This document shows, in pieces, positions 48,975-64,000 of a stretch of 64,000 nt of DNA. Within the stretch, counting starts at the first letter, position 1; the number at the start of each line of letters is the position of its first letter. The position numbers and the translations under genes are program-made. Source of the stretch: Candidatus Poribacteria bacterium (GTDB lineage Bacteria; Poribacteria; WGA-4E; PCPOR2b); the NCBI GenBank assembly GCA_022822785.1, contig JAJEAL010000134.1:75349-139348 (forward strand), written 5' to 3'. The notes under the pieces are model-generated. The model saw nothing but the letters and a program-made list of their open reading frames with translations. It searched no databases and was not told where the DNA came from.

Positions 48975-49646
48975 ATGAAATGTAATCAAGTACAGGAAAA
49001 GCTACTTCACTCTATTGACAAGGAGTTGTCTCCACAGATTCGAGAGCATCTGCTTGGCTGTAAAGAATGCGAGCAGAAATATCGAATCTTACAGACGACG
49101 CAGAAATCGCTAGAAGATTTTGGCCGTGCTGTTCGAGATGGTTCTATTTCAATGGAGGCACCGCCATTTCCGCCGGTTCGACGCCGTTCCTTCTGGATCG
49201 AAATACGCGATAGCCTGAAAACGCCGGTGCCGGTGTGGATACCATCTGCTATCGGTGTGGTTGGGTTGCTGCTGTTCGTTGTGTCGATTTTTTCGCCGCT
49301 CACGCCGTCGGTGGAATGGGGTACACAAAAAGGGAGTGAAAATGCAGGTCGCATCGCTCCACCACTCTCAGCGGAGGGGATGTTGGAGTTTCTCATTATG
49401 CCTGAACCAACGGATGCAGCACAACTCGCCGCCTCAATCGAAACAGTTGAAACGTTCCTGAAGATGCATCCCGACGATCTCGCGATGCATGCCAAACTGG
49501 TTGATCTGTATCAATCTCGACTCAAGTTGGGGGAACTGTCCGCCGGCGAGCGCGACGCCATGGCAGAGAAATTATCACTTGAACGACAACGTTTTTCAGC
49601 GCTGCTGGAAAATTTTACGAAAGGGGTAGAGAATGATTCAGAATAG
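48975..49646 (+). CDS. Anti-sigma factor (zf-HC2 putative zinc finger plus a single TM helix)
   Basis: 223 aa, CxxxxxxLLxxxDxELxxxxxxHLxxCxxC motif and one TM segment (VWIPSAIGVVGLLLFVVSIF). Confidence 0.7.
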   Translation: MKCNQVQEKLLHSIDKELSPQIREHLLGCKECEQKYRILQTTQKSLEDFGRAVRDGSISMEAPPFPPVRRRSFWIEIRDSLKTPVPVWIPSAIGVVGLLLFVVSIFSPLTPSVEWGTQKGSENAGRIAPPLSAEGMLEFLIMPEPTDAAQLAASIETVETFLKMHPDDLAMHAKLVDLYQSRLKLGELSAGERDAMAEKLSLERQRFSALLENFTKGVENDSE

Positions 49647-52600
49647 CTTGGGACAAACAGGTGGATGGAAGGAGGGAAAGATGGAAGGATGGAACCAATC
49701 TTCCATCTTCGCTTCCGCTTGCATCTTGATTCGATGGGCGCTTTCGGTCTGTAGTTTATTTGTAATTTTTTCACAGCCCATCCACGCTGAACAATATGCC
49801 ATCCTCGTGGGCGTTTGGGACTATGAAAATCCAAACTTACAGCTTGATGCGCCGCCAAACGATTTGAAGCTGATGGAAGCGGTGCTCTCGGCACAGGGTG
49901 TCACACAGGAACAGATGCACATCCTCCCCAATCCGAACAAGGCACAGATTCAACGTAAATTTCGGGAACTCAGCCGCCGCCTGACCCCTTCCGATAGCCT
50001 GCTTTTTTATTTTAGTGGGCATGGCACGCAGATTATTGACAAACTCGGAACTTTTCCGGGGGATGAAGCGAAAGGGCGATACCCGGACAGGAACGATGAA
50101 GCACTGTTGCCTGTGGACGCGGATCTGGCATCGCCCAAGACGTACCTGTTGGATGACGAACTCAATACCCTGCTCCAAGAACTGCCGACGCAGCAGGTCT
50201 CCTGCATTATTGACACATGCTACTCCGGCGACATACTTCGAGAGATTCGTCTGGGACGGCCCAAAGGCTCGCCGGTGGCGGATACCCCAACGGGGATCGC
50301 TCAACCTACCCAGATTGTAAGCCATACGGAGGACATCTTGGATGAGTCCGCCGATTTTGCGCTGCTGTTAGCGGCTTCTGCATACAATCAGGTCGTCCAT
50401 GAACTGCGCATCCCGATTGGCGAGACCTATCTACCTGTCAGTGCGATGACCTATTCTCTCTATCGAGGGGTGTTTGCGCGCTCGCAACCTCCTGCAGATC
50501 AGATGGACGCGAGACAATGGGACGGCAAACTGACGTACCGCCAAATTATTCAGCATATCCAGAACGACCATAGGCAGTGGAATCTAGCGTGGCAGCCTGT
50601 CCTTGAGGGACCAGGAAATCGCTTCAATGAGGTGTTTCTCCCTACTGACTTGATGCCGCAATTAAACGACACATTAACCCTGACAACAATAAAGGGGCAG
50701 TCGATATCGGTGAGTCGGCGGGCGTTGGCGCTTGCCGGTGGTGGCAATTTTCAGCTTGGCGCTGCGAGTGGTATCAACACCCGACATTGGGCGGTTGTTA
50801 TCGGCGTGGATGCGTATCCGTCACCCTTTCAGTCGCTCAAGTATGCTGCCGATGATGCCAAAGCGGTCGCGCAGGTGTTCCAAGATGCAGGCGCCAATGT
50901 GACGCTGATGACGCCTGATAGCCTGATTCAGCCGACGAAGGCGAATATAATTGAACAGCTCCAACGACACGCTCAACTTGAAGGGGTAGATCTGCTGACC
51001 GTTTATCTCTCTGGGCATGGCGAGGATGTCAATGGAACAGGTTACTTTCTACCGATGGATGTCGCCGATCCACTCGTGGACGGTGGACTGAGTCTTGAAA
51101 ATCTGTTTGCGATTCTCAACCGCGCAAACGCCAAGCATCGGTTCGTCATCGTTGATGCGTGTCGAGTGGCACCGAAGGCCCACTTCGTTGCGGCGCTGTC
51201 GCGCTATAGTGAGGAGAGCAATATCATCTTCACAGCGTGTGATAGCAACCAGTGGGCACCGGAAGTTCCACGCCTGAAACATGGACTGTTCACCTACTTC
51301 CTGCTCAAAGGGCTGCGCGGCGGCTCCCAGGACCGGGGCGCAGCAGGTGCCGATGGGACCGTCACGGTATTGGGGTTATTGGATTATGTGACACGCGGCA
51401 TTGAGGAGTGGCATTCCCACCTGTCCGAGGAGCAACACTATCCGCAGCAGATTACGCCCCGCGTCTTTTATAACGGGAAATATATCTCACTGTTGAACAA
51501 CCAAGGGATTGACCCGGCGGTGATCAACAATGAAGGGCTGCTTCCCCAAATTACCAATACGTTCCGACATCAACTCGCCCGTAGCTTGGAATTAGCACCT
51601 TCTTCAGAAAGAAATGATGGTGTTACACCGTCAACCCCAAAAGGTAACGATTTACATCTGCCTGTGACCATTTCACTAATTCCGTGGATTAGTAGTGTTG
51701 GCGTCCATGACTTCAACCGTAATATCACAACGAACCTGTCACTCAATATTATTGCAGGTTATCATACCAAGTTGGATGGCATCGAATTGGGTGGGGTTTT
51801 GAACATAAAGGGGCTTGAGGCGAAGGGCTTACAATTCGCTGGGGTTGGGAATATCGTCGGTGGGGATGTAGACGGTTTCCAAGTTTCAAGTGCACTTAAC
51901 GCTGTGGGCAGAAATATGGAGGGTTTCCAAACGTCGGGTGGAGTCAATGCTAGTGGTCGCGACGTTAACGGGTTCCAAGTCGCGGGTGGTGCCAACATCG
52001 CCGGCAAAAACGTGGAAGGTTTCCAAGCGTCAGGTGGAGTCAACGTTAGCGGTGGTAATCTCGATGGTTTCCAAGCAGCGGTGGGCGGCAATGTGGTTGG
52101 CAGAGATGTGGTCGGTGTCCAAGCCACAGTCGGGGCGAATCTGGGTGGGCGTGACCTTCGAGGTTTGCAGGCAGCTGGCGGCGCGAACTTCGTCGGTGGG
52201 AAAGTGGGAGGTCGAAGTCTACAGGCCGCGGTCGGACCCAACATCGCTGGGCGTTTAGAGGGGACACAGCTCAGCGTGTCTGCTAATATCGCGCTTGATC
52301 GGTATCAAGAGACAAATCTCTCGTACGCAGGTACACAGATTGGGATGGTCAATATTGCGCCCGGTGATATTGGGACACAGATTGGGCTTCTCAATATTGC
52401 TGGTCATGTGGGTACGTCGCAGGTGGGCCTGCTTAACGTCTCCGGACGGATGTCGGGCGTCCCGATCGGATTGATCAGTTTCGTCAAGGATAATCCACTA
52501 CACCTGCAACTGTGGAGTAGCGATACGGAGGTTGCAAACCTTGGGATTCGACTCGGTAGCCGACACGTTTACAGTCTGTTGATGATCGGCAGTTACCCAC

Positions 52601-52950
52601 ACGGCGATTTGGGCAGATGGTCGTCCGGGTTTGGTATCGGTGGGCACATTCCGCTCGGCAGGCAACTCTTTCTGAACGTTGACTTTATTACGCGCCAGGT
52701 GGGTTATACCGACGAATGGGCGGAGGAGACTTGGCGGTATGATGAACACACCGTCTTGAACAAACTGCGCCTTGGGTTTGGCTGGGAGCAGCACAAATGG
52801 TTCAGCTTCTTTGGTGGTGTTTCGCTCAACTTCCTCGTCTCGGATAGAGGGGACACTTCGGATTTTGGGTACGGATTTGATCATGTATACCGAAGGGATG
52901 ATACGACCGTTCGTATTTGGCCCGGGTTCTTTGCGGGGGTTCAGTTTTGA
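49633..52950 (+). CDS. Secreted tandem-caspase (peptidase C14 x2) protein with Gly-rich 16-aa repeats and a beta-barrel-like C-terminus
   Basis: His/Cys dyads FYFSGHG...DTCYSGD and VYLSGHG...VDACRV. Signal-like N-terminus. Repeats GFQxxGGxNxxGxxxx. C-terminal ...GFFAGVQF. Confidence 0.7.
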   Translation: MIQNSLGQTGGWKEGKMEGWNQSSIFASACILIRWALSVCSLFVIFSQPIHAEQYAILVGVWDYENPNLQLDAPPNDLKLMEAVLSAQGVTQEQMHILPNPNKAQIQRKFRELSRRLTPSDSLLFYFSGHGTQIIDKLGTFPGDEAKGRYPDRNDEALLPVDADLASPKTYLLDDELNTLLQELPTQQVSCIIDTCYSGDILREIRLGRPKGSPVADTPTGIAQPTQIVSHTEDILDESADFALLLAASAYNQVVHELRIPIGETYLPVSAMTYSLYRGVFARSQPPADQMDARQWDGKLTYRQIIQHIQNDHRQWNLAWQPVLEGPGNRFNEVFLPTDLMPQLNDTLTLTTIKGQSISVSRRALALAGGGNFQLGAASGINTRHWAVVIGVDAYPSPFQSLKYAADDAKAVAQVFQDAGANVTLMTPDSLIQPTKANIIEQLQRHAQLEGVDLLTVYLSGHGEDVNGTGYFLPMDVADPLVDGGLSLENLFAILNRANAKHRFVIVDACRVAPKAHFVAALSRYSEESNIIFTACDSNQWAPEVPRLKHGLFTYFLLKGLRGGSQDRGAAGADGTVTVLGLLDYVTRGIEEWHSHLSEEQHYPQQITPRVFYNGKYISLLNNQGIDPAVINNEGLLPQITNTFRHQLARSLELAPSSERNDGVTPSTPKGNDLHLPVTISLIPWISSVGVHDFNRNITTNLSLNIIAGYHTKLDGIELGGVLNIKGLEAKGLQFAGVGNIVGGDVDGFQVSSALNAVGRNMEGFQTSGGVNASGRDVNGFQVAGGANIAGKNVEGFQASGGVNVSGGNLDGFQAAVGGNVVGRDVVGVQATVGANLGGRDLRGLQAAGGANFVGGKVGGRSLQAAVGPNIAGRLEGTQLSVSANIALDRYQETNLSYAGTQIGMVNIAPGDIGTQIGLLNIAGHVGTSQVGLLNVSGRMSGVPIGLISFVKDNPLHLQLWSSDTEVANLGIRLGSRHVYSLLMIGSYPHGDLGRWSSGFGIGGHIPLGRQLFLNVDFITRQVGYTDEWAEETWRYDEHTVLNKLRLGFGWEQHKWFSFFGGVSLNFLVSDRGDTSDFGYGFDHVYRRDDTTVRIWPGFFAGVQF
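51870..52265. repeat. Intragenic ~48-bp tandem repeats (about 8 copies) encoding the Gly-rich 16-aa units
   Basis: Periodicity is visible in all frames. The antisense frame gives PPTxxP repeats. Confidence 0.6.
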
Positions 52951-53016
52951 ACACAATATGCCAGATGCCCTTTTTATGTATGTGGGTTGGGCTTCCTAGC
53001 CCAACATCAAAGGCAT

Positions 53017-53032
53017 CGGGGCAAGATGCCCC
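53017..53032. repeat. 16-nt hairpin CGGGGCAAGATGCCCC, copy 1
   Basis: Identical to 56825-56840; lies 35 nt beyond the 3' end of the PLD-SNF2 gene. Confidence 0.6.
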
Positions 53033-53066
53033 TCCCACTGGCCCGAACGGATTTTTCGGCGTTAAT

Positions 53067-56000
53067 TTAGACCAATGCTGCGCTGCAAATAATCTTTGGA
53101 ACGGTTTCATTTTCAAGTTGTGCGGCTTGCTGCCTCGATTCCCATTCCCGCATGTTGTGTTGACGATACAGGTCTCTCAGATTTTTCAGCAAGGCATCTC
53201 CGGTCACGCCGTTTCGACGCAGTAAATTGAGTTCTCGATTCACCGCGGTTGTAATTGTCCCACGAAACGCCTTTTCCAGTGTGCTGACTTGAGCGGAGAC
53301 ATCTTCATCACCACCCCCCGCCCCCCCGCCGCTAGCGGGGGGGAGAGAGGGGGTAATGATTTTCAATTCCCTTAACACATACCGTTGCCCCTGTGTCAGG
53401 GAGAGGGTGTGCTTGCGTTCCGATTGCAGGTCTTTGATTTCTTGGATGAATAACCGCTTGACCCCCATGATAGTCGCATTGTAATCCGTAGGCAACTCGC
53501 CCCCGGGAAGTTCCGGTTCGCACTCAATCTGATTGAGGATGCGGGAGATGTCTCTGGAGGTAATATCGCCTTTTTCATCCAAAAGGAACAGTTGTTGATA
53601 ACGTCCCGCTTGACAGAACAGATAGGTGCCTTCTGAGCCTTTTGGGATTGCTGTGCGAATCCCGTCTCTCAGATTCGCGATTCGCTCATACTCCTCCGGA
53701 TCCTCACGCCGCAGCTGTCTCAGAATTTCTTCGGCTTCGTTGAGATCGATTACCTTTTCATCTTCGCTTTCTTCAAACAGACTCAACTGCTCGCCTTCCT
53801 CCTCATAGATAGCATACATCGCCGCTTCGTTAAGTTGTTCGGAGTTATCGAGGATAGCTGCGTCCTCACCAATCGTATCGTGAATTTCTTGGATACGGCG
53901 TTGAAGGATTTGTTGCAATCCCAAATTTTGTTCGATGCCGGTTTCTGGCAGAAAGTTAAAGCCGTAAATCACATCGTGCTCGCTACCGATACGGTCGATA
54001 CGCCCGAATCGCTGGATCAGTCGCACAGGATTCCAGTGGAGATCGTAGTTAATGATTTTGTCGCCGTCCTGTAGGTTAAGTCCTTCCGCCAATACGTCGG
54101 TAGCGATAAGGGTGGACAGTTCCGATTCTCCACGCTGAAAACGGTACTCTGAATTTGCTTTCGGCGCAAAACGCCCCACGACCCGTTCTTTGCTTTTATC
54201 ACCGCTATAGATCACGTCAATATCAGTCCGTTTGCTGTTGGGGTTAATATTGTCAAACAGATAACGCGCTGTATCCGCATATTGGGTGAAGATTAGGCAC
54301 TTTCCCTCGTTAAGAGGCGGTTCTGCCAACCGTTTTTTGAGGATTTGCAGCTTCGCATCTTGCTCAGCGGTGATTGGTGATACAAGGTCTGACATCGCTC
54401 GTAGCAGCTGGAGGTCATGCTCAATATCCCCACGTAGCTCGTCGATTTTGAAATCTGCAATGTTGTATCGCGCTGAAGCTTGCCTCAACGCATCCATCAG
54501 GTCCTGTTCCTCTGCTTCGTTCGGTTCGTAGAGGAGGTCTTGTGCTTGGTCACCGGCGGGAACAATGCCTTCTTCTATAGCTTTGAGAAAGCGTTCGTGA
54601 ATCTTCAACAATCGACGCACTGATATCTTAAAGGCGTACACACTGGATTCAAATCGCTTGAACAGGAGTATCCGCATCAGCCCACGAAGGTTGACCCCTG
54701 AACGTTGCAGGTTGGTGTAGGGCTCCTGTTTCTGCTTTGACTTAATTACGTAATTCCAGAGCCCATAGCGGGCATAGGTTAGTGTGCTAACTGAAGAGGA
54801 AGGTGATCGGCTGCCTCGCGGTTTTCCCAGATGTTCCCGCAGCTGAAGGTAAAGCCCCTGATAGGTGTCTTCAATATTGTAGGAGATGGTTTCCAAGACA
54901 CGATTGGGGAAGAACTGCTTGTTTCCACCGACAACGACGTAAGCCTTTCGATGTCCGTCAAGATACTCCTGAAATTGGGACGGATCAACGGGTTGGTCGG
55001 TCTCTCCGTCGAAGCCGTACCAACGCAAGATATGATTGCGGGTGCGTCGGATGAGGATATTTCCTAACAGGTCGGGGAGATTTTTTTCTCGCTTCTCAAT
55101 CTGGCGAAAGTATGTCCGCAGGTTGGGGGGATCTATTGGTAAGTCAGTGATGTCTTCGGGGTGAAAGAGTTTAATCTGGTGGTATACGTCCCAAGCACTC
55201 TTGTTGCGTGGTGTCGCGGTGAGAAAACAGCATTGTCGCCCGGTGGCTAAAAAGGCCTGCAGCACTCTGTAACGTTGCGTGTCACGATGGCGGAAATTAT
55301 GACTCTCATCAACCAGTACAAAGTTCCGGTCGCGGTATATCACATCATCAAGAATTGTCGAAGTGAGATCGTACCCCTGTTCATCCGGTCGATCCTCACC
55401 TTCTCGTAAATGTCCCATAGAAAGGACGCGGGCGTTGAGTTGATAGACTTCGTTGTAGCGTTCCCACATTTGGACCAACGGGGCGGGGCAGACAATTAGT
55501 GGACGTGCATTTTCCGCCCATTCAAAATACTTGACAATTGCTGCACCGATGTAGCTTTTACCGAGACCGACGACATCTGCGACAAAGGCACCGCCGTAAT
55601 CCCGAATAATCTGCACCGCTTGCTGGACCGCAACTTTCTGAAAATCCGCTAACTGTTTGGTAATGTCCTCCTCCCAGAGTATGTCCCCCTCGTCGCCCCC
55701 TTCAAGTCGATCTTTAACCAACTCATAGAGTGTCTTCATGTAAATGTCGTAGGGGGACACGGGGGCGATTGCCCACGATGATTTCATTACCTCCATTAGG
55801 GATTCATCGAAATTTTGCGCTTCATCCCAGAGTTCGTCGAACCAGCGACATAGTTCGGCGTGGTTTGCGTTCCCTTGCACCACAACGTTTAGCTCGGTAT
55901 TGTGGCTTACACCGGCTAGTGTGAGGTTAGATGATCCGACAACGGCGATGCCTTTTTCATAGCGTCCTTCGTCGTTATAATCGAAGATGTAGGCTTTGGC

Positions 56001-56465
56001 GTGTAGTCTGCCTTTGGTGTAGACGCGGACCCGCAGCCGCTTTTCTTTTATCATCTCGACCAACGTTTTGATCAACAATTCACCGTCGTCGGTCTGATCC
56101 ATTAACTCCACAGACTCTATGATGTTCTCTGCGGTTTCTGCCCCCATCTGTTGACTTTCGATGCGTTTGGGGTAGGTCTGGGCTTCGGCGACATCGGCGA
56201 CCTGTTCTAACCTGGGATACCCTTCGGCGAGCTGCTCCAACGTCTCACGATTGGTGGTATTACCGATCAGCAAGCGGAGTTCTTTGACGCCCTGTAGTTC
56301 TTTCGCAATGCTTTGAAATCCCGACAGAAAAAAATACCCTACCGCGAATCTCGCTTTTTCGGTGGAGTCGAGGATGAGGTTGATGTGTTCTGCCAACTTT
56401 TCGCTTCGGTTGTCAATGATGTCGTGTTGCATTTCGGTTGCTTGCCCTAGTTTTTTGCCGTTCAA
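53067..56465 (-). CDS. PLD-family (HKD) nuclease fused to an SNF2-family SF2 helicase, 1132 aa
   Basis: HKD motif RLHAKAYIFD in the N-terminal domain. SNF2/DEXH motifs GLGKS, FVLVDESHNFR, LIATDVLAEGLNLQ, QRFGRIDRIGS. Confidence 0.75.
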   Translation of the reverse strand: MNGKKLGQATEMQHDIIDNRSEKLAEHINLILDSTEKARFAVGYFFLSGFQSIAKELQGVKELRLLIGNTTNRETLEQLAEGYPRLEQVADVAEAQTYPKRIESQQMGAETAENIIESVELMDQTDDGELLIKTLVEMIKEKRLRVRVYTKGRLHAKAYIFDYNDEGRYEKGIAVVGSSNLTLAGVSHNTELNVVVQGNANHAELCRWFDELWDEAQNFDESLMEVMKSSWAIAPVSPYDIYMKTLYELVKDRLEGGDEGDILWEEDITKQLADFQKVAVQQAVQIIRDYGGAFVADVVGLGKSYIGAAIVKYFEWAENARPLIVCPAPLVQMWERYNEVYQLNARVLSMGHLREGEDRPDEQGYDLTSTILDDVIYRDRNFVLVDESHNFRHRDTQRYRVLQAFLATGRQCCFLTATPRNKSAWDVYHQIKLFHPEDITDLPIDPPNLRTYFRQIEKREKNLPDLLGNILIRRTRNHILRWYGFDGETDQPVDPSQFQEYLDGHRKAYVVVGGNKQFFPNRVLETISYNIEDTYQGLYLQLREHLGKPRGSRSPSSSVSTLTYARYGLWNYVIKSKQKQEPYTNLQRSGVNLRGLMRILLFKRFESSVYAFKISVRRLLKIHERFLKAIEEGIVPAGDQAQDLLYEPNEAEEQDLMDALRQASARYNIADFKIDELRGDIEHDLQLLRAMSDLVSPITAEQDAKLQILKKRLAEPPLNEGKCLIFTQYADTARYLFDNINPNSKRTDIDVIYSGDKSKERVVGRFAPKANSEYRFQRGESELSTLIATDVLAEGLNLQDGDKIINYDLHWNPVRLIQRFGRIDRIGSEHDVIYGFNFLPETGIEQNLGLQQILQRRIQEIHDTIGEDAAILDNSEQLNEAAMYAIYEEEGEQLSLFEESEDEKVIDLNEAEEILRQLRREDPEEYERIANLRDGIRTAIPKGSEGTYLFCQAGRYQQLFLLDEKGDITSRDISRILNQIECEPELPGGELPTDYNATIMGVKRLFIQEIKDLQSERKHTLSLTQGQRYVLRELKIITPSLPPASGGGAGGGDEDVSAQVSTLEKAFRGTITTAVNRELNLLRRNGVTGDALLKNLRDLYRQHNMREWESRQQAAQLENETVPKIICSAALV

Positions 56466-56791
56466 TCCTGTGAGGATTCTGTTCGCAATGCTTGTCCAAT
56501 ATATTCGTCGTGTCGTTCGCTGAGATCTGTGGAATCACATTCCAATGTACCTGCCAAGGCTAGTAGTGGATCGGGGTTGCCAGACATCATTTTCCGTAAG
56601 TGACTGTCGTTTTCTACTATCCCGTCTAGGGCACTTTCGGCAGATAAATTTGTCTGCTCACGTTCAAACCGTTCAACCATAGCCGCAACCCATTGAGCGG
56701 TCATTTCTTCGGGAGTTTTCCCGAATTGTTGGGCGATATGTTTTAAGGAACGATACAAACTGTTCTCAAGTTTGATTGTTAATGTTTGCAT
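56462..56791 (-). CDS. Small putative ribbon-helix-helix (CopG/Arc-like) protein, translationally coupled (ATGA overlap) to the PLD-SNF2 gene
   Basis: 109 aa. N-terminal TLTIKLENSLYRSLKHIAQQFGKTPEEM is a strand-helix pattern typical of RHH. The assignment is tentative. Confidence 0.35.
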   Translation of the reverse strand: MQTLTIKLENSLYRSLKHIAQQFGKTPEEMTAQWVAAMVERFEREQTNLSAESALDGIVENDSHLRKMMSGNPDPLLALAGTLECDSTDLSERHDEYIGQALRTESSQD

Positions 56792-56824
56792 TGACTTGTA
56801 TCTCCTACGGATTGTTTTGATGGG

Positions 56825-56848
56825 CGGGGCAAGATGCCCCGCCTACGG
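56825..56848. repeat. 16-nt hairpin CGGGGCAAGATGCCCC, copy 2, extended as GCGGGGCAAGATGCCCCGCCTACGGG
   Basis: Identical core to 53017-53032, in the same orientation. Confidence 0.6.
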
Positions 56849-56860
56849 GATATGGTGTTA

Positions 56861-57331
56861 TTACTCCCTTGCCCAACCTATCAGTGCTTTATCGGGGGAG
56901 GCAATGTCGTTGATGGATGTATAATAGTAGCGTTCCCATCCGAGACGAGGCAGACCGGTGAAAATCATCAGGTTGAGTGGATATACATCACTATCGACAG
57001 CACGTCGAAAGTCGTCCCGAAATAGGAAGGTGGGCTTACCGAGTGCTATCGCTATTCCTAGCTCGATCATGACCCCTTCATCTGGGGGCACTCCGTTTAT
57101 GACCGCAAAAATTGCGTCCGCATCGAATACGTCCTGTTTGTCCTTCTGTCCAATTCGGTACGCCCAGTCGGAGGATAACCTGTCCTGGTTATTGCGTTCA
57201 AACGGCTCCCATACTTCTAACCCAACCGCTTCCAATGCCTTAACGAGAGCGGGTAAAGCGGTCTCTCGCAGTTGCTCTGAGAAGCCGTAGGGATTTGCCA
57301 GATATATTGTCTTTTTTTTTGTTACGGTCAT
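56861..57331 (-). CDS. Nucleoside 2-deoxyribosyltransferase / DNPH1 (Rcl)-fold protein
   Basis: 156 aa. IYLANPYGF...AVINGVPPDEGVMIELGIAIALGKPTF matches the NDT/DNPH1 D..G...E.G.A.A.GKP nucleophile motif. Confidence 0.6.
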   Translation of the reverse strand: MTVTKKKTIYLANPYGFSEQLRETALPALVKALEAVGLEVWEPFERNNQDRLSSDWAYRIGQKDKQDVFDADAIFAVINGVPPDEGVMIELGIAIALGKPTFLFRDDFRRAVDSDVYPLNLMIFTGLPRLGWERYYYTSINDIASPDKALIGWARE

Positions 57332-57336
57332 CGGTT

Positions 57337-58560
57337 CTACGATTCGCTCTCTTCTTGCAGAGATTTTGCCGCAAAAATTGTTAAGCGTAATTCTTCGCCG
57401 AACAGTTCGTATACAGGGATTTTGCCGCTAAGCTGCTCACTCTCGTTCAGGATGATACCAACCCCCTCACCCCGACGTTCTAAAAAGTGTCGCCGAACTA
57501 CCTGTGAACCCATATCATCGTCGAGCGTAATTTCCGAAAGTAGGCGAGCGAGGAGTTCGTTACGGGTTGCCTGATTATAGCGCAAATCGTCCACTGTTAA
57601 GGTATTTGCCAATGCACCCGGCGAATAGAGCTCTAGCCGGTCCGTGAACATAAATAGACGAATCTTCGATCCGGCTTTTGAATAATCTCTATGTACCACG
57701 GCGTTAACCACTGCCTCAAAAACCGCTCTCATACTGTATTGTGATCGCTCTATTCTGCCGATTTCCTTGCGAGCCGAGACTTGGTTATATCTCTCAACAA
57801 ATTTGAAGGCATCCACAATCTGTTGATCCAACGGTCCTCTAAAATCTTTACCATCAATCTGGTAGTTCGCATCCCTTTCCACGCCATTATAGAAAACAGC
57901 TTGAATGAAACTGTTGTAGAGGTAATCGTCGGGTCTATCATGACACATCAACAGACCAGCCACCGAGGCGCGATCCTCCTGCCCCTCTTTGACCAGCAAA
58001 CGCCTTTTCAATAGCAGGTCTTCTACCTTCTCACGTTCAGTCGCTTCTTCTGTGATAAATCGTTGATACAGTGTTTCCCTTAATATGTCTTTGTGAGTGC
58101 TCGGCACAAACTGTTCGTCAAAAGCGATGATACGTGCCTGTGAGCGGCTTTGTAGCAATCGCCCTAACTGCTCGGTGGTCATCCTGCTCTTGCTGCTGCC
58201 TTGACGAATGAAGTAACGGCCGGATGATTCGTGGACAAACAAGCTACGGGGCACCTCTATTTTTAACAGGTTTTTGTCATCAATCCGCAGTTTTTCGGTA
58301 AGGATGTGAACCATGGGGTCAATGTTATCCCGGCATACTTCAACCATTGTTCTCTCTATCCTGTCCAGATCTTGGCGATCCATACCGACAATTTCACTAT
58401 CGTCGTCAACACCGATCAGTATCACCCCACCGTTAGCGTTGGCAAAAGCAGCGACTTCCTCGGCAAGACTCTCTCTGTGAGGTAACTCTCTTTTGAATTC
58501 AATCGTTGAGTCTTTCCCTAGGTATATTTTTTCGGTGAGCTCGGTCAAACTGTCAAACAT
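57337..58560 (-). CDS. COG2865-type protein: AlbA_2 (Schlafen-like 'divergent AAA') domain plus C-terminal HATPase_c_4-like domain
   Basis: 407 aa, N-terminal ...KDSTIEFKRELPH...ANANGGVILIGVDD typical of AlbA_2. 5-bp gap to the NDT-like gene. Confidence 0.6.
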   Translation of the reverse strand: MFDSLTELTEKIYLGKDSTIEFKRELPHRESLAEEVAAFANANGGVILIGVDDDSEIVGMDRQDLDRIERTMVEVCRDNIDPMVHILTEKLRIDDKNLLKIEVPRSLFVHESSGRYFIRQGSSKSRMTTEQLGRLLQSRSQARIIAFDEQFVPSTHKDILRETLYQRFITEEATEREKVEDLLLKRRLLVKEGQEDRASVAGLLMCHDRPDDYLYNSFIQAVFYNGVERDANYQIDGKDFRGPLDQQIVDAFKFVERYNQVSARKEIGRIERSQYSMRAVFEAVVNAVVHRDYSKAGSKIRLFMFTDRLELYSPGALANTLTVDDLRYNQATRNELLARLLSEITLDDDMGSQVVRRHFLERRGEGVGIILNESEQLSGKIPVYELFGEELRLTIFAAKSLQEESES

Positions 58561-58676
58561 CGCTTATTCCTTAGATGAATATGCTATTGTCTGAATCGTG
58601 GATTGTCGTGGATTAACGCATGACACGGATTAAATCCCCGGTTTCCCATTGCTGGAAATTGTTACTTCCCTTGCGG

Positions 58677-58964
58677 TCAAGTGGGTTCTCCCACAGATAT
58701 GAGCGAAAGATCTTCAAGAAATGAACGTACATTTTCAATCTGCGAATCGTCAATATCCCAATCATACTCTTTAGCAACTTCTTGGATCTGTTCGGTTGTG
58801 GTTCTGCCTTGCCGGTTGACAATATAGTAGTGCGGACCGAAACCAAGATCAGTTTCCTCTAATACCGAAAGAAAATAAAGTTTCTTTTGGAGGGTGGTTC
58901 GCCCCCGGAGACTTTTATTGTTTTCGCTTCCAATGACAAGCAAAATCAGGTCTTGAATGTGCAT
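58677..58964 (-). CDS. Hypothetical 95-aa protein, weak resemblance to the Panacea (DUF4065) antitoxin-associated domain
   Basis: GRTTLQKKLYFLSV resembles the Panacea (T)KLQKLLYFAQ motif. Weak. Confidence 0.25.
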   Translation of the reverse strand: MHIQDLILLVIGSENNKSLRGRTTLQKKLYFLSVLEETDLGFGPHYYIVNRQGRTTTEQIQEVAKEYDWDIDDSQIENVRSFLEDLSLISVGEPT

Positions 58965-59102
58965 AGAACCTCTTTTCTTTTCGGGACAATGTCCTTTGAC
59001 TCCCTCTTGTCAGGAAGCTAGCAAAATATCTTACTTATTTTTACTTCATTTTGGCATTGATCATAGGAGGGCGATTTACTACGACGAGGTAGTCCAGCAG
59101 AT

Positions 59103-59516
59103 TTACGTCTTGACGATGACAAATACACCGATGATGAAGGCAATCTCTATTATGTAAAAAATAATGAGGGTGAGGGAAAAGATAGCGGAAAGCCAGCTAC
59201 ATTTCGGTTTATCTCTGTGCTTTAGGGAACTCATCTCAAAATCGGTATCGGATTGAACCCTGATTTCGTTGTATACTTGTCGAAACAATCTTTCTTGCCA
59301 GAGAAAGTATCCGTCCAGAATCCAAAACCCAAGGGCGGGCAGGATAAGCACTAGGACAAAGTACGGGTTTTGTATTTCAGGTTTGGCGATTAAAACCATC
59401 GCTGCGACAATAATAGTCATACTCCAACTTTTGACTAAGAAACTATTGCTCCCCAAACGGTTGATAACAGCTTGGGTCATTTCCAAGTGCTTTACGACCT
59501 TTTCCGTACCATTCAT
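59103..59516 (-). CDS. Small membrane protein with three predicted TM helices
   Basis: 137 aa. Three hydrophobic segments (TIIVAAMVLIA, FVLVLILPALGFWIL, LSAIFSLTLIIFYIIEIAFIIGVFVIV). AT-rich gene. Confidence 0.45.
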   Translation of the reverse strand: MNGTEKVVKHLEMTQAVINRLGSNSFLVKSWSMTIIVAAMVLIAKPEIQNPYFVLVLILPALGFWILDGYFLWQERLFRQVYNEIRVQSDTDFEMSSLKHRDKPKCSWLSAIFSLTLIIFYIIEIAFIIGVFVIVKT

Positions 59517-59612
59517 GGTTTTATCCTCCTGTGCCGCATTTTGAAATTTGGTGATGTAATCATAAGGTTAATTTTTTATTAAGGATTTTCTCTACAATGC
59601 AGATTTCCTCGC

Positions 59613-60281
59613 TTATTCTTGCACCATTTTCGTTATGTTGTAATCATCTATTTTTTCTTTTATGTCTTCAGCCGTTTGAAGGTATGTTTCTTTATCTGCT
59701 ATAAAATCGCACCATTTAACTGAATGAATGTACGAGGACGCCCCTGTGTAAACAGGATAGTTGCTTGGATGGTTTGCACAGTTATTAAATGCAGGTTCCT
59801 TTATATTGAACATATTATCTTTCAGTATCTGAAACAGTCTATCAATATATAGAGATCTACAATGGCAAATGATACATGTGTCATCTGCAAGAAAGTAGCT
59901 ATATGATAAATATTCATCTGGCAAAACAACTGCTAACATTGCATTTGTTCGGCTTGTACGTCCATTCCGTGTAATTTCTTTCAGAGAGTATGAAACTTCC
60001 CACGGAATCCATTGGTCAGATTCCTTTTGCTCAGAATCTTTCATTTCTGGTGAAATTAGGACAAGCGTTAAACTACTGTCGTATATTTTGTCTTTTAGAT
60101 GAGATTCGATGGTTTCATCCTTAAAATCACTTAAATCTTCATCACCCTCCCCTTTGTAGATTTCATCATCTTCAAATAAATCAATTAGCTCATCAACATA
60201 AGCACGGGCAGTTGTTTCACCGTTAATAGGTTGAACACTATCATCAGCATGTTTATAGGAAACAAAAATTTTTCTTGCCAT
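59613..60281 (-). CDS. TIR-like protein (DUF1863 / ThsB-like)
   Basis: 222 aa. N-terminal KIFVSYKHADD and SLTLVLISPEMKDSE...WIPWEVSYSL resemble ThsB RVFFSFHYQD / TCVLIGSQT...WVRYEI. Confidence 0.55.
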   Translation of the reverse strand: MARKIFVSYKHADDSVQPINGETTARAYVDELIDLFEDDEIYKGEGDEDLSDFKDETIESHLKDKIYDSSLTLVLISPEMKDSEQKESDQWIPWEVSYSLKEITRNGRTSRTNAMLAVVLPDEYLSYSYFLADDTCIICHCRSLYIDRLFQILKDNMFNIKEPAFNNCANHPSNYPVYTGASSYIHSVKWCDFIADKETYLQTAEDIKEKIDDYNITKMVQE

Positions 60282-60433
60282 TTAGTTGTTGCTCCTTATC
60301 AATTTCCCAATTCCTATCAAAATATTTGCTTTCTGCATCCGTGCCCCCACAAGATAAACAACCCCTTAATGCATACCATCCCGTTCTCCTCGCGTGACGT
60401 TGAGGACGTTTGAAAATGAGCGTTTTACCACGA

Positions 60434-61648
60434 TTAGAGTGGGCAAATTCCATCTACTTGGATAGTAGAAGGTTCAACATTTGTATACTGCTGGGGGCGA
60501 CGCCCTTTGAATCTGACTTGTAACCGCTTTGAGTCTAGAAGCCTTAAATCCAATTGAAGTACATCTCCGACTGTGTTTGACAGTTTCAAATAAAGCACCG
60601 AAATTAAACGGGCGAATTTCTTGAACCTCCCGGCCGGTTGTCCAAAAGACTGATAGAGCTGTGGGATAGGGGATTCGAGAATTTGTAGACCGGTTTCATG
60701 GTATGATGAACTTCCGCCCCCAATAAAAGCCTCTAACATTCTTTGATTTATTAGATCAGATTGATCGAACCAAGGACTGACAGTCTCTAGCTTTTCATCA
60801 AGAAGAATCCTTCTTGCTCGCATTTTGGCAATCTGATCTGGTGAGATGTTGTTGAACGCCATATCATCAAGGGGATTGCTCTGTTGTCTACGACTATCTT
60901 CCTCCAAAACAACTTTCCAAACGGTTTGAGAGCTAGACGTAGCTTGAGAGATCTCCCGTGGACTTACCCAGGCGGCCTCCTCCCATAGCGCAAAAGCAAG
61001 TCTGTTACGAATAGGCACTATGCCACCACGATTGTTCCGCAATGAACGAAGAAAGGCAACTTCGTCGGGCGATGCTGGAAGCAATTCAAGAGAGATTTCT
61101 GTTGCCCCCCAATGCATATTTTGAAATGGGATAAAATACGGTTTCCCATCTTCTGTGTGGAACAGTACAAATTCACCAGGATCGCTCTCTGCGGCAGTCA
61201 AGGTTGATATATTAGCGTTCACTGGCTGTGATGCAGTGCCCGACAGTTTCTCCACTAAAGCTTGGTAAATTTCTTCCATGTTCGTCGGATCTAAATCAAG
61301 ATATCCGACTGTTGGCAAAATTCCCGGAATCTCTGTGTCATCAATACGAATTGGAAGAATATACTCCTCGTTTTCCTGAAATGCCCTTGCTTGAGCATTT
61401 TGGAGTTCGTGTTGCGCCCATAATTTCTGTGCATAGTGTTCAGACAGGAATATGACACAGTAACGCGCTTGATCCTTGTAAACCGATGAAAAGTGAACGT
61501 AGAGATCTTTACCCCAAAGTTGCGCCCGTTCAAATTCGTCATAAAAGACGGAATACCCCTCTGCTTGGAGACGGTTGGCTAGCTGTTCAGCGTAGGGACG
61601 ATCTTCTCCAGCAAAGGACAAGGCAACATCGTATTGTTTTTCTGTCAT
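60434..61648 (-). CDS. TIR-domain protein (canonical TIR_2 N-terminus) with an uncharacterised ~260-aa C-terminal domain
   Basis: 404 aa, YDVALSFAGEDR...YSVFYDEFE...CVIFLSEHYAQKLWAQHEL TIR signature. Confidence 0.65.
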   Translation of the reverse strand: MTEKQYDVALSFAGEDRPYAEQLANRLQAEGYSVFYDEFERAQLWGKDLYVHFSSVYKDQARYCVIFLSEHYAQKLWAQHELQNAQARAFQENEEYILPIRIDDTEIPGILPTVGYLDLDPTNMEEIYQALVEKLSGTASQPVNANISTLTAAESDPGEFVLFHTEDGKPYFIPFQNMHWGATEISLELLPASPDEVAFLRSLRNNRGGIVPIRNRLAFALWEEAAWVSPREISQATSSSQTVWKVVLEEDSRRQQSNPLDDMAFNNISPDQIAKMRARRILLDEKLETVSPWFDQSDLINQRMLEAFIGGGSSSYHETGLQILESPIPQLYQSFGQPAGRFKKFARLISVLYLKLSNTVGDVLQLDLRLLDSKRLQVRFKGRRPQQYTNVEPSTIQVDGICPL

Positions 61649-61818
61649 TTTTTACCCTTCCTCAACATATTTTGATTTTTGATTTACTATTCCTGATAAT
61701 ATACCATATAATGTTAAGTATACCCTACAGATGTTAAGTTTGCAATTGTCGCGGGTTAACGGAGAACATGGGTTCAAAAAAACAGCATCGGCAACACTTA
61801 ATCCTCGCAATTGTCTGA

Positions 61819-62862
61819 CTACCCACGAATACCAAAGAATCCCTCAATCACATTGCCCCACTTCGACCAAATTTCAGCCAAGCCTCCACCTGCACTGAGA
61901 GTCGCAGCAAGTGCTGATAAGGTAGGCTTGATGAGCCCTGCTTTTCTGCCGGGTGGTGCTAATGTGGCTTGTGCACTGAGTAACTCCAACTGTTCTAGGA
62001 TTTCAAGCTGTTGTTGTGATGAGATATCTTGGCTCGCTGTTATGGCTTCAATTAAATTCTTGAATGCTTCTGCTATCTGATGTTGATTAAAATCAACTAG
62101 AGTGGAAACGTTTACAGCAATTGATTCGACTTGCTTTATCTCTCCTGCGTTCAACATTCCTACTGTGCTGTTGGATATTTCGACTTTCATTTCAGTTCCT
62201 CCTTTCTGGATTAGTTGTTTAATGTTGAACGTAATGTTGCTCGCAGTTTCCTTCTCGTTTGCAGAAAAAACTAGTCCTTCTCCAAGAATGCCGTTTTCCT
62301 CTAATTTCAAAGCCCATTCTAAAATTATGTTTCTGACAGCCTCTTGGATTTTACGAAATTGAGACTTAGGAACATGGCATTCAGGTTCAGAATTAATATC
62401 TCCAAGATGTTCGCAAAGTTTAAGTTTTAGATCATCGGGAAAGGTTATCTTAACAAGAGAGGAACTTTTGTTGTCAAGTATAGTTTCTATTACTCCAATT
62501 GGATCGAGGACTGACCTTCTTGATAATCGTTTGCCTTCTTCAGGTGATTCAAATGTCCATGGTACCAACCTCTGATTAAGAAGAAGCCTAACCTTTAATT
62601 CCCCATCTACCCAGCGGTATTTAGGCAGCTTTTCCAATCTGTTTTCAGGACAATCCCAATCTAACTCTGCTAGATGATAATAACCGTTCAATTCTAACTC
62701 AATCCACTTTTCAAACTCTTGAATTTTCAGTTTTTTAGCTGCTACGAGTGCTTTTCTCAGTAAGTTGGAAATACTAATATCTGCATTGAGTGCATCACGT
62801 TGTAGTTCTATAATTAATGAGTCCATGAAAGAATCCCTACCTTTCAAAATTATACCGCTCAA
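61819..62862 (-). CDS. AbiTii-like abortive-infection protein
   Basis: 347 aa, N-terminal LLRKALVAAKKLKIQEFEKWIELELNGY resembles the AbiTii domain signature. Confidence 0.5.
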   Translation of the reverse strand: MSGIILKGRDSFMDSLIIELQRDALNADISISNLLRKALVAAKKLKIQEFEKWIELELNGYYHLAELDWDCPENRLEKLPKYRWVDGELKVRLLLNQRLVPWTFESPEEGKRLSRRSVLDPIGVIETILDNKSSSLVKITFPDDLKLKLCEHLGDINSEPECHVPKSQFRKIQEAVRNIILEWALKLEENGILGEGLVFSANEKETASNITFNIKQLIQKGGTEMKVEISNSTVGMLNAGEIKQVESIAVNVSTLVDFNQHQIAEAFKNLIEAITASQDISSQQQLEILEQLELLSAQATLAPPGRKAGLIKPTLSALAATLSAGGGLAEIWSKWGNVIEGFFGIRG

Positions 62863-63029: not shown

Positions 63030-64000
63030 TTAGGTTTTCAGGCTTTTTTCTTTACCGAGCCTGTCAGTAACATGTACTATGAAATCGTCCAAAATTTGCT
63101 CATAACAATCTACAAGTCCAAGAGGTTTTAAGATTAGCATATCGAAGATTTTCCTATCGGAGGCATTTATCTCCTGATCAATTGGCATTACCTCTCTCTT
63201 AGATAGAATGTTAAATGCCTCTATGATTTCGGCAGCTTCTCTATCGGAGAAATTTGAGGGATTGGGAATTAGAAGTGGTTTTATTTCAGGCCCGTATATG
63301 TTAATTCGACCACTTACATTGATACGTCCCATAAGTTCAAGCAGAAAGTACGCTAAAGTTGAGTTGAGCAACGCCGCGGCAAGTTCGCTTGTTTTACGAT
63401 TCCGAAATTTGCCATGAAAAAACATGTCACCTATACGGAAATGATTTTTGTTCAGTGGCACAAAAAATCTCGATCGGATAAGTCTAGGAATTATAAAATC
63501 TCCACCCTCTTGATCCGGAACAGCATACCAAATACTTCTATTACGAATTGTGCTGGCTTGGGGTAAGGGAACGCCCCCGACTGTATGAGACGCTTTTTTG
63601 CTAGTCTTTAAATTTTCACCATATTTGATATATGCTAAGGTTCCCTTTGCAGCCCGCTTTCTTAGTTCCGTTTTAGACAGATCACAAAGGAATATACGTT
63701 TTTGAATATGAGGAGTTTCAATGACAAGCCGCTCTATCTCGTGCATTGAAGTTATAACAGGCTTGAGAAACTCCTCCTCAATCCTCTGCTCCTGAACCTT
63801 TTGATCATCAAGGTAGAAAAACTCATTTGCCCCCGTTGTAAAACCGCGCCGCACGTCTGCAACATCTCCCAAACGAACCAACTTATCCTTCCCCTTTTCT
63901 ATAATTGTCCAGTAGATGTCCGGGGCGCGGAGATACTTTCCGCCCCACTTGTCGCCTGTATACTTTGGGTTGGGAGCGGTATCATCGCTGCCCGTTTTCA
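63030..64000 (-). CDS. C-terminal region (target-recognition part) of an Eco57I-like N6-adenine DNA methyltransferase / type IIG restriction enzyme. The gene continues past the window end.
   Basis: LGDVADVRRGFTTGANEFFYL motif. The frame stays open upstream of the ORF-table TTG start through 64000 (...YLRAPDIYWTIIEKGKDKLVRLGD...). Confidence 0.6.
   Translation of the reverse strand, partial: KTGSDDTAPNPKYTGDKWGGKYLRAPDIYWTIIEKGKDKLVRLGDVADVRRGFTTGANEFFYLDDQKVQEQRIEEEFLKPVITSMHEIERLVIETPHIQKRIFLCDLSKTELRKRAAKGTLAYIKYGENLKTSKKASHTVGGVPLPQASTIRNRSIWYAVPDQEGGDFIIPRLIRSRFFVPLNKNHFRIGDMFFHGKFRNRKTSELAAALLNSTLAYFLLELMGRINVSGRINIYGPEIKPLLIPNPSNFSDREAAEIIEAFNILSKREVMPIDQEINASDRKIFDMLILKPLGLVDCYEQILDDFIVHVTDRLGKEKSLKT

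Follow-up and report, generated by a model that had tools for sequence, protein, structure and literature searches.

The helicase-nuclease gene and its family

The stretch of DNA considered here, referred to as the window, comprises 64,000 nucleotides of contig JAJEAL010000134.1 from a Candidatus Poribacteria metagenome-assembled genome. Its minus strand carries a gene for a protein in which a phospholipase D (PLD) nuclease domain with an HKD motif is joined to a SNF2-type helicase (HKD-SNF2 hereafter) and, further upstream, the end of a large methyltransferase gene. The features of these two genes are listed below; L numbers are our handles for individual loci.

53067..56432, minus strand: HKD(PLD)-SNF2 helicase-nuclease gene, 1121 amino acids from the ATG at 56432; predicted motor-nuclease (restriction) subunit
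55788..56432, minus strand: N-terminal HKD/PLD nuclease domain, residues 1-215, with PLDc_2 and RE_NgoFVII matches
55926..56003, minus strand: single HKD motif, H144 to N169, within the N-terminal nuclease domain
53985..55670, minus strand: SNF2-type superfamily 2 (SF2) ATPase core, residues ~255-816, with SNF2-rel_dom and Helicase_C matches and invariant motif residues
53070..53793, minus strand: C-terminal region of ~240 residues without a Pfam match, kept in the family and in a 31%-identical paralogue
63030..64000, minus strand: C-terminal 322 residues (specificity region) of the proposed partner, an MmeI/Eco57I-type N6-adenine methyltransferase, whose 1223-amino-acid gene starts beyond the window end (L001 1..3403)

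The original prediction described the large protein as a PLD-SNF2 fusion of 1132 amino acids coupled to a small upstream open reading frame (ORF), and both ORFs are indeed present, at 53067..56465 and 56462..56791 on the minus strand. The length of 1132 amino acids is correct for the longest ORF (53067..56465), which is counted from a TTG, but the actual start is the ATG at 56432; the public gene calls place it there, giving 1121 amino acids and a 29-nt gap after the 109-amino-acid ORF, and the corresponding first methionine is invariant in 42 HKD-SNF2 homologues. The fusion architecture is borne out by Pfam, which finds PLDc_2 (residues 133-213), SNF2-rel_dom (281-478) and Helicase_C (707-827), so that an N-terminal single HKD motif (HxKx4D...GSxN) and a SNF2 ATPase core stand in one chain. 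The HKD set, too, proved complete when the 42 homologues were aligned, reading H144-x-K146-x4-D151 ... G166-S-S-N169, with H144, K146, G166, S167, S168 and N169 invariant and D151 present in at least 90%. The SNF2 motifs are intact and invariant or nearly so in the same alignment (I, GLGKS; II, DESH at 55299..55310; III, TATP; VI, QRxGRxxR in the Helicase_C lobe).

Structures matched by the large protein in a phmmer search against the PDB were the Sulfolobus Rad54-like SNF2 protein, ISWI, CHD4 and RapA; the search returned generic SNF2 and DEAD-box lobes only, and neither a PLD-helicase structure nor SauUSI or MtsD was retrieved. The C-terminal region aligns to the C-terminus of the paralogue, the terminal IICS..LV included, and a promoter and terminator scan of 52800..58800 gave results at chance level. 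PLD nucleases such as Nuc and BfiI carry one HKD motif per chain and build their active site by dimerisation; with one HKD motif per chain the active site of the window's protein would therefore need a dimer, as the structure of MtsD, discussed below, also suggests.

There is nothing unusual about the HKD-SNF2 gene of the window within its family, which is very large and strongly conserved, and it represents no new class. More than 3600 close relatives, 56-90% identical to the large protein, are spread over many phyla, and a search with the N-terminal 250 amino acids yielded, at E<=1e-10, 955 cluster representatives, of which those of full length have 1040-1230 amino acids and the domain at the N-terminus. 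A second HKD-SNF2 family, that of the 31%-identical paralogue, is also very large and is found in the same Poribacteria genomes.

The methyltransferase and a proposed two-gene system

The distribution of neighbouring genes was examined in 81 loci containing the large gene, taken from 80 species-representative genomes and the window's own contig. Clustering of their ORFs gave one widely shared neighbour family, found in 48 loci, always upstream and co-oriented and ~1000-1280 amino acids in length. With tblastn this methyltransferase was found in 43 of the 58 loci that have at least 4 kb of upstream flank, and never on the opposite strand; the count is a lower bound, as some islands may outrun the fetched flank. 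This type IIG-like methyltransferase was overlooked as a partner in the original prediction; its gene lies mostly outside the window, with the last 322 codons inside. Its stop is at 63030, 6.56 kb upstream of the HKD-SNF2 gene on the same strand.

Across the loci the distance between the two genes ranges from a 23-bp overlap to 7.4 kb, and where nothing has been inserted between them the gap in bp is -23 (L031), -22 (L071), -1 (L072), +2 (L074), +14 (L073), +50 (L044), +141 (L078) or +157 (L026). Conservation of the pair extends over bacterial phyla and into archaea. Plasmid pBNX82-1 of Haloferax alexandrinus (L123) carries a "DNA methyltransferase" followed after 6 nt by a "helicase-related protein", and a Thermococcus profundus plasmid (L122) has the methyltransferase and HKD-SNF2 pair with an AbiEii gene in between; these archaeal pairs are 32-34% identical and are annotated with just those two descriptions. 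The 31%-identical paralogue can also be paired in this way, since at L125 it occurs with an MmeI/Eco57I methyltransferase in reversed gene order and with an 11-nt overlap. At the Haloferax locus a gene for a CRISPR-associated ring nuclease adjoins the pair on the opposite strand.

Members of the partner family have Eco57I, MmeI_Mtase and N6_Mtase domains, often with TaqI_C, and the 1223-amino-acid product at L001 shows MmeI_Mtase/Eco57I/M_Eco57I_C domains. PADLOC classes the partner as type IIG, with weaker matches to DrmMI, PglX and MAD2. The catalytic motifs of the methyltransferase are intact, NPPY being present in all 28 full-length partners and DPACGSG in most; the window's partner has both. 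The first ~200 residues are conserved but hold no conserved acidic residue, and no MmeI_N domain was detected in the partner methyltransferases. Within this region lies a motif, LF(V/I)FS(N/D)-x8-WHF(L/V)N(V/I)K, in which the first position (N/D) is N in 21 of 25 partners and D in the other four, and in which N occupies, in all 25, the place where the catalytic E of MmeI would sit, the MmeI nuclease motif being D-x9-E-x-K. In the window's partner the motif reads FIFSNREQTDWHFVNVK, that is FIFSN-REQTD-WHFVNVK, without acidic catalytic residues. By this comparison the methyltransferase appears to have lost its own nuclease, and with the motif degenerate an external nuclease would therefore be needed for restriction.

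The two proteins also differ greatly in how far they have diverged. The helicase-nucleases share a median pairwise identity of 63.8%, the methyltransferases one of 27.8%, and between the C-terminal 300 amino acids of the methyltransferases there is usually no detectable similarity. To judge from these alignments, a conserved motor coupled to a hypervariable specificity region is the pattern of a restriction-modification (RM) system.

We propose that the 1121-amino-acid protein serves as motor-nuclease subunit in an ATP-dependent, RM-like system of two genes, in which the MmeI/Eco57I-type methyltransferase encoded upstream is its partner, a reading to which we assign a probability of about 0.7. 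The methyltransferase would read a short, probably asymmetric site and methylate host DNA, thus marking self, and on unmethylated foreign DNA it would recruit or license the HKD-SNF2 protein. The latter would dimerise, its two HKD halves forming one composite PLD active site, and ATP-driven translocation would bring sites together, after which both strands would be cut in turn. This mechanism is put forward because of the analogy with Type I/ISP enzymes, with SauUSI and with MtsD of the MANTIS system. The effector MtsD, of PLD-SF2 type, forms a dimer with a single composite active site, requires its ATPase for restriction and resembles SauUSI (bioRxiv 10.64898/2026.09.23.753747; PMC12839542).

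The proposal should be considered with caution, as several points weigh against it. What is seen directly is gene pairing, motif integrity and conservation pattern, whilst an interaction of the two proteins, a recognition site, methylation and cleavage are predictions. In 15 of the 58 loci with at least 4 kb of flank the fetched DNA contains no methyltransferase, although seven of these are Poribacteria, in which the island may exceed 8 kb. The description of the partner as nuclease-dead comes from a motif comparison with D-x9-E-x-K of MmeI. An AlphaFold2 model of the 1121-amino-acid protein was unusable, with a mean predicted local distance difference test (pLDDT) score of 48.5 from an alignment of 42 sequences 69-90% identical to the query. 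Finally, the mechanism of the analogue is itself partly a model, cleavage by MtsD not having been reconstituted in vitro in the MANTIS work (bioRxiv 10.64898/2026.09.23.753747; PMC12839542).

The cargo slot and the orphan vapB gene

Between the methyltransferase and the helicase-nuclease gene of the window lies a run of further genes, which, together with the small ORF next to the HKD-SNF2 gene, comprises the following features.

56462..56791, minus strand: orphan vapB-type antitoxin gene, 109 amino acids, with a ribbon-helix-helix (RHH)-like N-terminus and the C-terminal motif DPLLALAGTLE..TD.SERHDEYIG; no core component
56474..56477, no strand: deletion junction, with 1031 bp missing relative to L119 (vapB 3' end, PIN vapC gene and spacer)
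56861..62862, minus strand: variable cargo run between methyltransferase and helicase-nuclease, all co-oriented
56861..57331, minus strand: nucleoside 2-deoxyribosyltransferase (NDT), 156 amino acids; cargo
57337..58560, minus strand: Schlafen-like SLFN_AlbA_2/HATPase_c_4 protein, 407 amino acids; cargo
58677..58964, minus strand: 95-amino-acid ORF, a truncated small gene; cargo
59103..59516, minus strand: PDC-M50A membrane protein (E 1.3e-37); cargo
59613..60281, minus strand: ThsB-like TIR protein (PADLOC ThsB, E 4e-81); cargo
60434..61648, minus strand: TIR_2 protein, 404 amino acids; cargo
61819..62862, minus strand: AbiTii; cargo

The defence-island setting that had been proposed for the locus holds. 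The stretch separating methyltransferase and helicase-nuclease is a hotspot for the insertion of exchangeable defence and toxin-antitoxin genes, and the 109-amino-acid ORF is one such cargo item. At other loci the slot contains AAA_15, AAA_14+DUF4143, AAA_21, nucleoside deoxyribosyltransferases, MNT, PIN, SLFN_AlbA_2/HATPase_c_4, TIR, AbiEii, HD and 8xMP genes. A similar embedding of cargo has been described for Type I RM, Hma, BREX and BREX-related loci.

The small ORF had been taken for an RHH-like gene whose overlap with the start of the fusion (ATGA) indicated coupling, and this part of the earlier description fared less well. There is no ATGA overlap, the junction reading ...CAG GAT TGA ACG..., in which the only overlapping start is a TTG (TTGA). 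The RHH-like character is no more than plausible. In the AlphaFold2 model residues 1-45 are confident (pLDDT 83-90) and the remainder is disordered, with a strand-like element at 1-9 and helices at 10-22 and 27-52; the 109-amino-acid protein, however, matches no Pfam RHH family, and the Foldseek hits of the model against the PDB are non-significant (best E 0.47), albeit enriched in RHH antitoxins and repressors (ParD, VapB, FitA, CopG and Arc).

The protein has ~97 relatives. In the neighbourhood comparison a homologue with the full motif stands upstream of the fusion in just four of the 81 loci (the window's contig, L002, L006 and L007), all of them close Poribacteria and one of them, L002, the window's sequence from another assembly, whilst the syntenic and 89%-identical loci L003/L004 lack the small gene. 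The claim that it is a conserved partner of the fusion therefore does not stand. On contigs from metagenomes, genes for proteins that combine this motif with an RHH N-terminus mostly precede a PIN gene of ~138-144 amino acids, with an overlap of usually 4, 8 or 29 nt, and the syntenic Poribacteria loci L119 and L120 have a 112-amino-acid orthologue overlapping a downstream PIN gene by 8 nt, with the HKD-SNF2 gene next in line. Alignment by blastn matches window 57400..56477 to L119 5382..6315 (83%) and window 56474..56000 to L119 7347..7821 (87%), and L121 has the same junction. By this comparison the 109-amino-acid ORF is the vapB of an RHH-PIN pair whose toxin gene was lost by the 1031-bp deletion, which stranded the antitoxin gene and put its stop 29 nt from the helicase-nuclease start. 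The junction is located within the final codons of the ORF, so that the apparent coupling is a deletion scar. The protein resembles the VapB of VapBC pairs in its plausibly RHH-like N-terminus, in the conserved toxin-side motif of its disordered C-terminus and in the 8-nt overlap of its orthologues with the PIN gene; it differs from them in that the window has no cognate PIN gene and its last codons derive from the deletion junction.

Among the loci without a PIN gene (window, L006:7635-7952, L007 and L121), the ratio of non-synonymous to synonymous substitution rates (dN/dS) of the orphan vapB is 0.16-0.28 at dS 0.43-0.60, and the L006 gene has an in-frame stop; these values are those of a gene held by purifying selection in some lineages and decaying in the L006 lineage. 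The orphan VapB may serve as an RHH repressor at this locus, or it may neutralise PIN paralogues encoded elsewhere; the system does not require it. It is conceivable, although we consider it quite improbable, that VapB was co-opted after PIN loss as an RHH repressor or protein inhibitor of the HKD-SNF2 nuclease, and that its motif could link PIN toxin-antitoxin modules to HKD-SNF2 nucleases; were this true, the nuclease might be restrained by a labile antitoxin-like peptide, or sense its depletion.

The same motif recurs at loci of the paralogous HKD-SNF2 gene (1124-1192 amino acids, 31% identical to the window's; L085:3132-7863, L115:3330-9435, L116:4199-9785 and L117:3237-8854). There the upstream genes comprise one of 266 amino acids, a motif-bearing gene of 151 amino acids, a PIN gene and one to four tandem 86-amino-acid genes overlapping by 8 nt, each of the last encoding two copies of the VapB C-terminal motif without a DNA-binding domain. 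These loci always adjoin der GTPase and 2-Hacid_dh genes, and no methyltransferase is present within ~5 kb of the paralogue at any of the four. A functional link of the tandem motif genes to HKD-SNF2 is unlikely.

Just upstream of vapB, at window 56792..56860 on the minus strand, a G+C-rich hairpin, GGCGGGGCA-TCTT-GCCCCGCC, stands between CCGTAGG direct repeats. The repeats are partly kept in L121 and L119, and the second overlaps the ribosome-binding site; the structure could serve as an operator or represent a small repeat element.

Several other features of the island may be recorded. The Schlafen-like and NDT genes lie 5 bp apart; L007 and L119 have the pair in their cargo slots as well, and L121 has a shorter version of it. 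The two may constitute a defence module of two genes. Among the PADLOC matches of the Schlafen-like protein are models of Argonaute-associated (pAgo) proteins. The PDC-M50A and ThsB-like TIR genes form a candidate PDC-M50/Thoeris-like pair, with no ThsA nearby. The 95-amino-acid ORF derives by internal in-frame deletion from a 186-amino-acid gene, intact at L018:5475-6035, ~91 residues having gone between ...GPHYY and (VYY)IVNRQG. From ~58 kb onward the G+C content drops to 0.39-0.43, compared with ~0.50 elsewhere. On the other side, convergent with the HKD-SNF2 gene (49633..52950, plus strand), is a gene whose 1105-amino-acid product is caspase-like (Peptidase_C14), has two C14 regions and contains a long G-rich repeat region. 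Before this gene come TonB-dependent receptor and anti-sigma-like genes, and this flank is syntenic in several Poribacteria, forming a fixed edge of the island.

Known systems, alternative readings and significance

The best PADLOC model for the large protein is PDLC01075, "C3a139 HKD+Snf2" (E 2.6e-87). Under NCBIfam NF042964 (the Gao_RL/MANTIS PLD protein) it scores 157 bits against a cut-off of 1100, under NF038317 (DrmD) 135.8 bits against 610, and under the PADLOC PLD_Helicase model (Gao_RL) 86 bits; no curated model takes it as a full member. Partial matches were obtained to DrmD, DrmC, DrmMI, HmaA, BrxHII and the Gao_RL PLD-helicase. One conserved-domain entry, cd09178, is the CDD model of an N-terminal HKD domain fused to Snf2-like helicases. 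Milman et al. list a type II RM coding sequence beside PLD (cd09178) and SNF coding sequences (PMC9881135), and bacterial RM systems with an HKD domain fused to a SWI2/SNF2 ATPase have been cited from 2006 (PMC3417536). The fusion had been called unclassified, a label that does not survive these mentions and the C3a139 match; the related statement that it belongs to no existing system holds for the curated cut-offs, which it fails to reach, but must be qualified by its match to the PADLOC family. The literature searched contains such passing mentions (PMC9881135, PMC3417536) and related work on MANTIS and BREX-related type 2 systems, and no name for, or experimental study of, the two-gene form.

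The closest likeness is to MANTIS, also known as BREX-related type 2 or Gao_RL, in which the N-terminal HKD-helicase effector MtsD works with a DUF499 ATPase, a DUF3780 protein and a methyltransferase (bioRxiv 10.64898/2026.09.23.753747; PMC12839542). In both, an N-terminal single-HKD PLD domain is fused to an SF2/SNF2-type ATPase and encoded with an N6-adenine methyltransferase in an RM-like arrangement, a dimer with one composite PLD site is expected, and the operon can include defence cargo and a regulator of the Arc/CopG type. However, neither DUF499 (MtsA) nor DUF3780 (MtsB) occurs among the window neighbours; neither is widely shared across the 81 loci, nor are they among the 25 most frequent of 67 Pfam families in 105 cargo genes. 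The methyltransferase here is large and type IIG-like with its own specificity region, and the window protein, at 1121 amino acids, is longer than MtsD with its ~895-position model. Class 1 DISARM (DrmD, DrmMI, DrmC, DrmA, DrmB) likewise combines a SNF2 helicase, a PLD nuclease and a large Eco57I-type adenine methyltransferase, and the profiles of DrmD, DrmC and DrmMI match in part, but here PLD and SNF2 are in one chain, the scores fall under the cut-offs, and the DrmA/DrmB (DUF1998) core is absent from the window neighbours and from the conserved neighbour clusters of the 81 loci, as the original prediction had held for this locus. It was right, too, in setting the protein apart from Mokosh, since the ATPase is of the SNF2-type SF2 and not of superfamily 1 (SF1), and no Mokosh model is among the best 25 of 50 PADLOC matches.

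With MmeI-family type IIL/IIG enzymes and PglX of BREX the partner shares MmeI_Mtase, Eco57I and TaqI_C-like domains, NPPY and a weak match to the MmeI helical spacer; it differs from the former in its N-terminal motif N...N-V-K, devoid of acidic residues, cleavage presumably being left to a separate ATP-dependent nuclease, and from BREX in that PglZ and BrxC are absent here. SauUSI (type IV) and NgoAVII/CglI also couple a PLD nuclease to an SF2 translocase, but SauUSI is autonomous and targets modified DNA, the nuclease and ATPase of NgoAVII/CglI are two proteins, and neither is SNF2-type by sequence. The HKD-SNF2 protein works like these systems, and is no member of MANTIS, DISARM, Mokosh or the CRISPR accessory set.

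Four other explanations of the locus have been weighed. That the HKD-SNF2 protein is an autonomous restriction enzyme, either modification-dependent like SauUSI or a sequence-independent nuclease, with the nearby methyltransferase reflecting the clustering of defence islands, we consider unlikely. SauUSI does have the same PLD and SF2 layout and acts alone, the C-terminal ~240 residues could be a target-recognition domain, and around a quarter of the loci lack a methyltransferase in the fetched flank, as do the paralogue loci L085 and L115-L117 within ~5 kb. Against this, the methyltransferase gene invariably lies upstream in the same orientation, in many cases overlapping the helicase gene, the pairing holds from Poribacteria to Haloferax, the degenerate nuclease motif of the methyltransferase calls for an outside nuclease, and the conserved motor beside a hypervariable specificity region follows the RM pattern. 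The RHH gene and the fusion might instead form a self-contained, translationally coupled two-gene defence module in which no methyltransferase is involved. The two ORFs are adjacent and co-oriented, the small gene is under purifying selection after toxin loss, some MANTIS operons carry the Arc/CopG-type repressor MtsR, and upstream of the paralogous Poribacteria gene, too, there are small genes encoding the same C-terminal motif. Its distribution, in four of 81 loci that are all close relatives and not in L003/L004, largely refutes such a module, however, and the deletion scar, with vapB and PIN together in orthologous loci, the lack of ATGA coupling and the in-frame stop in L006 leave it very improbable.

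A degenerate or minimal DISARM, or a MANTIS or BREX-related type 2 system with its missing components encoded elsewhere, would account for the partial matches listed above and for an N-terminal HKD and SNF2 layout as in the BREX-related type-2 helicases. Every score is nevertheless far under the curated cut-off, DrmA/DrmB, DUF499 and DUF3780 are missing from the window and none is a conserved neighbour in the 81 loci, and the methyltransferase is of the MmeI/Eco57I type IIG class, so that there is little to recommend this explanation. An accessory role in a type III CRISPR-Cas system is suggested by the C3a139 label, that family having been defined from four type III loci in a screen for CRISPR accessory genes (Shah et al. 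2018, PMC6546367), and by the one archaeal homologue near a ring nuclease gene. The best profile match and the fusion architecture are indeed those of C3a139, but the best-scoring stretch covers residues 15-456 only, and the family is defined by closeness to type III CRISPR-Cas, of which there is none here: the 64-kb window contains no CRISPR array, its neighbours gave no cas match, and no neighbour family other than the methyltransferase is widely shared among the 81 loci. With array and cas genes absent from the locus this role was rejected, and we give it next to no credence.

Returning to the two-gene RM-like system, HKD-SNF2 fusions in an RM context were already known; what is added here is their conserved link to a seemingly nuclease-dead methyltransferase, the cargo slot and the explanation of the small gene's position as a deletion scar. 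The last of these provides a cautionary case, in that what looks like translational coupling between closely adjacent genes can be a scar left by a recent deletion, whilst the slot between both genes should be useful for mining new defence genes. The conserved pairing ties the HKD-SNF2 family to a specific partner, and points to a simple two-gene, ATP-dependent RM-like system present in many bacterial phyla and in archaea.

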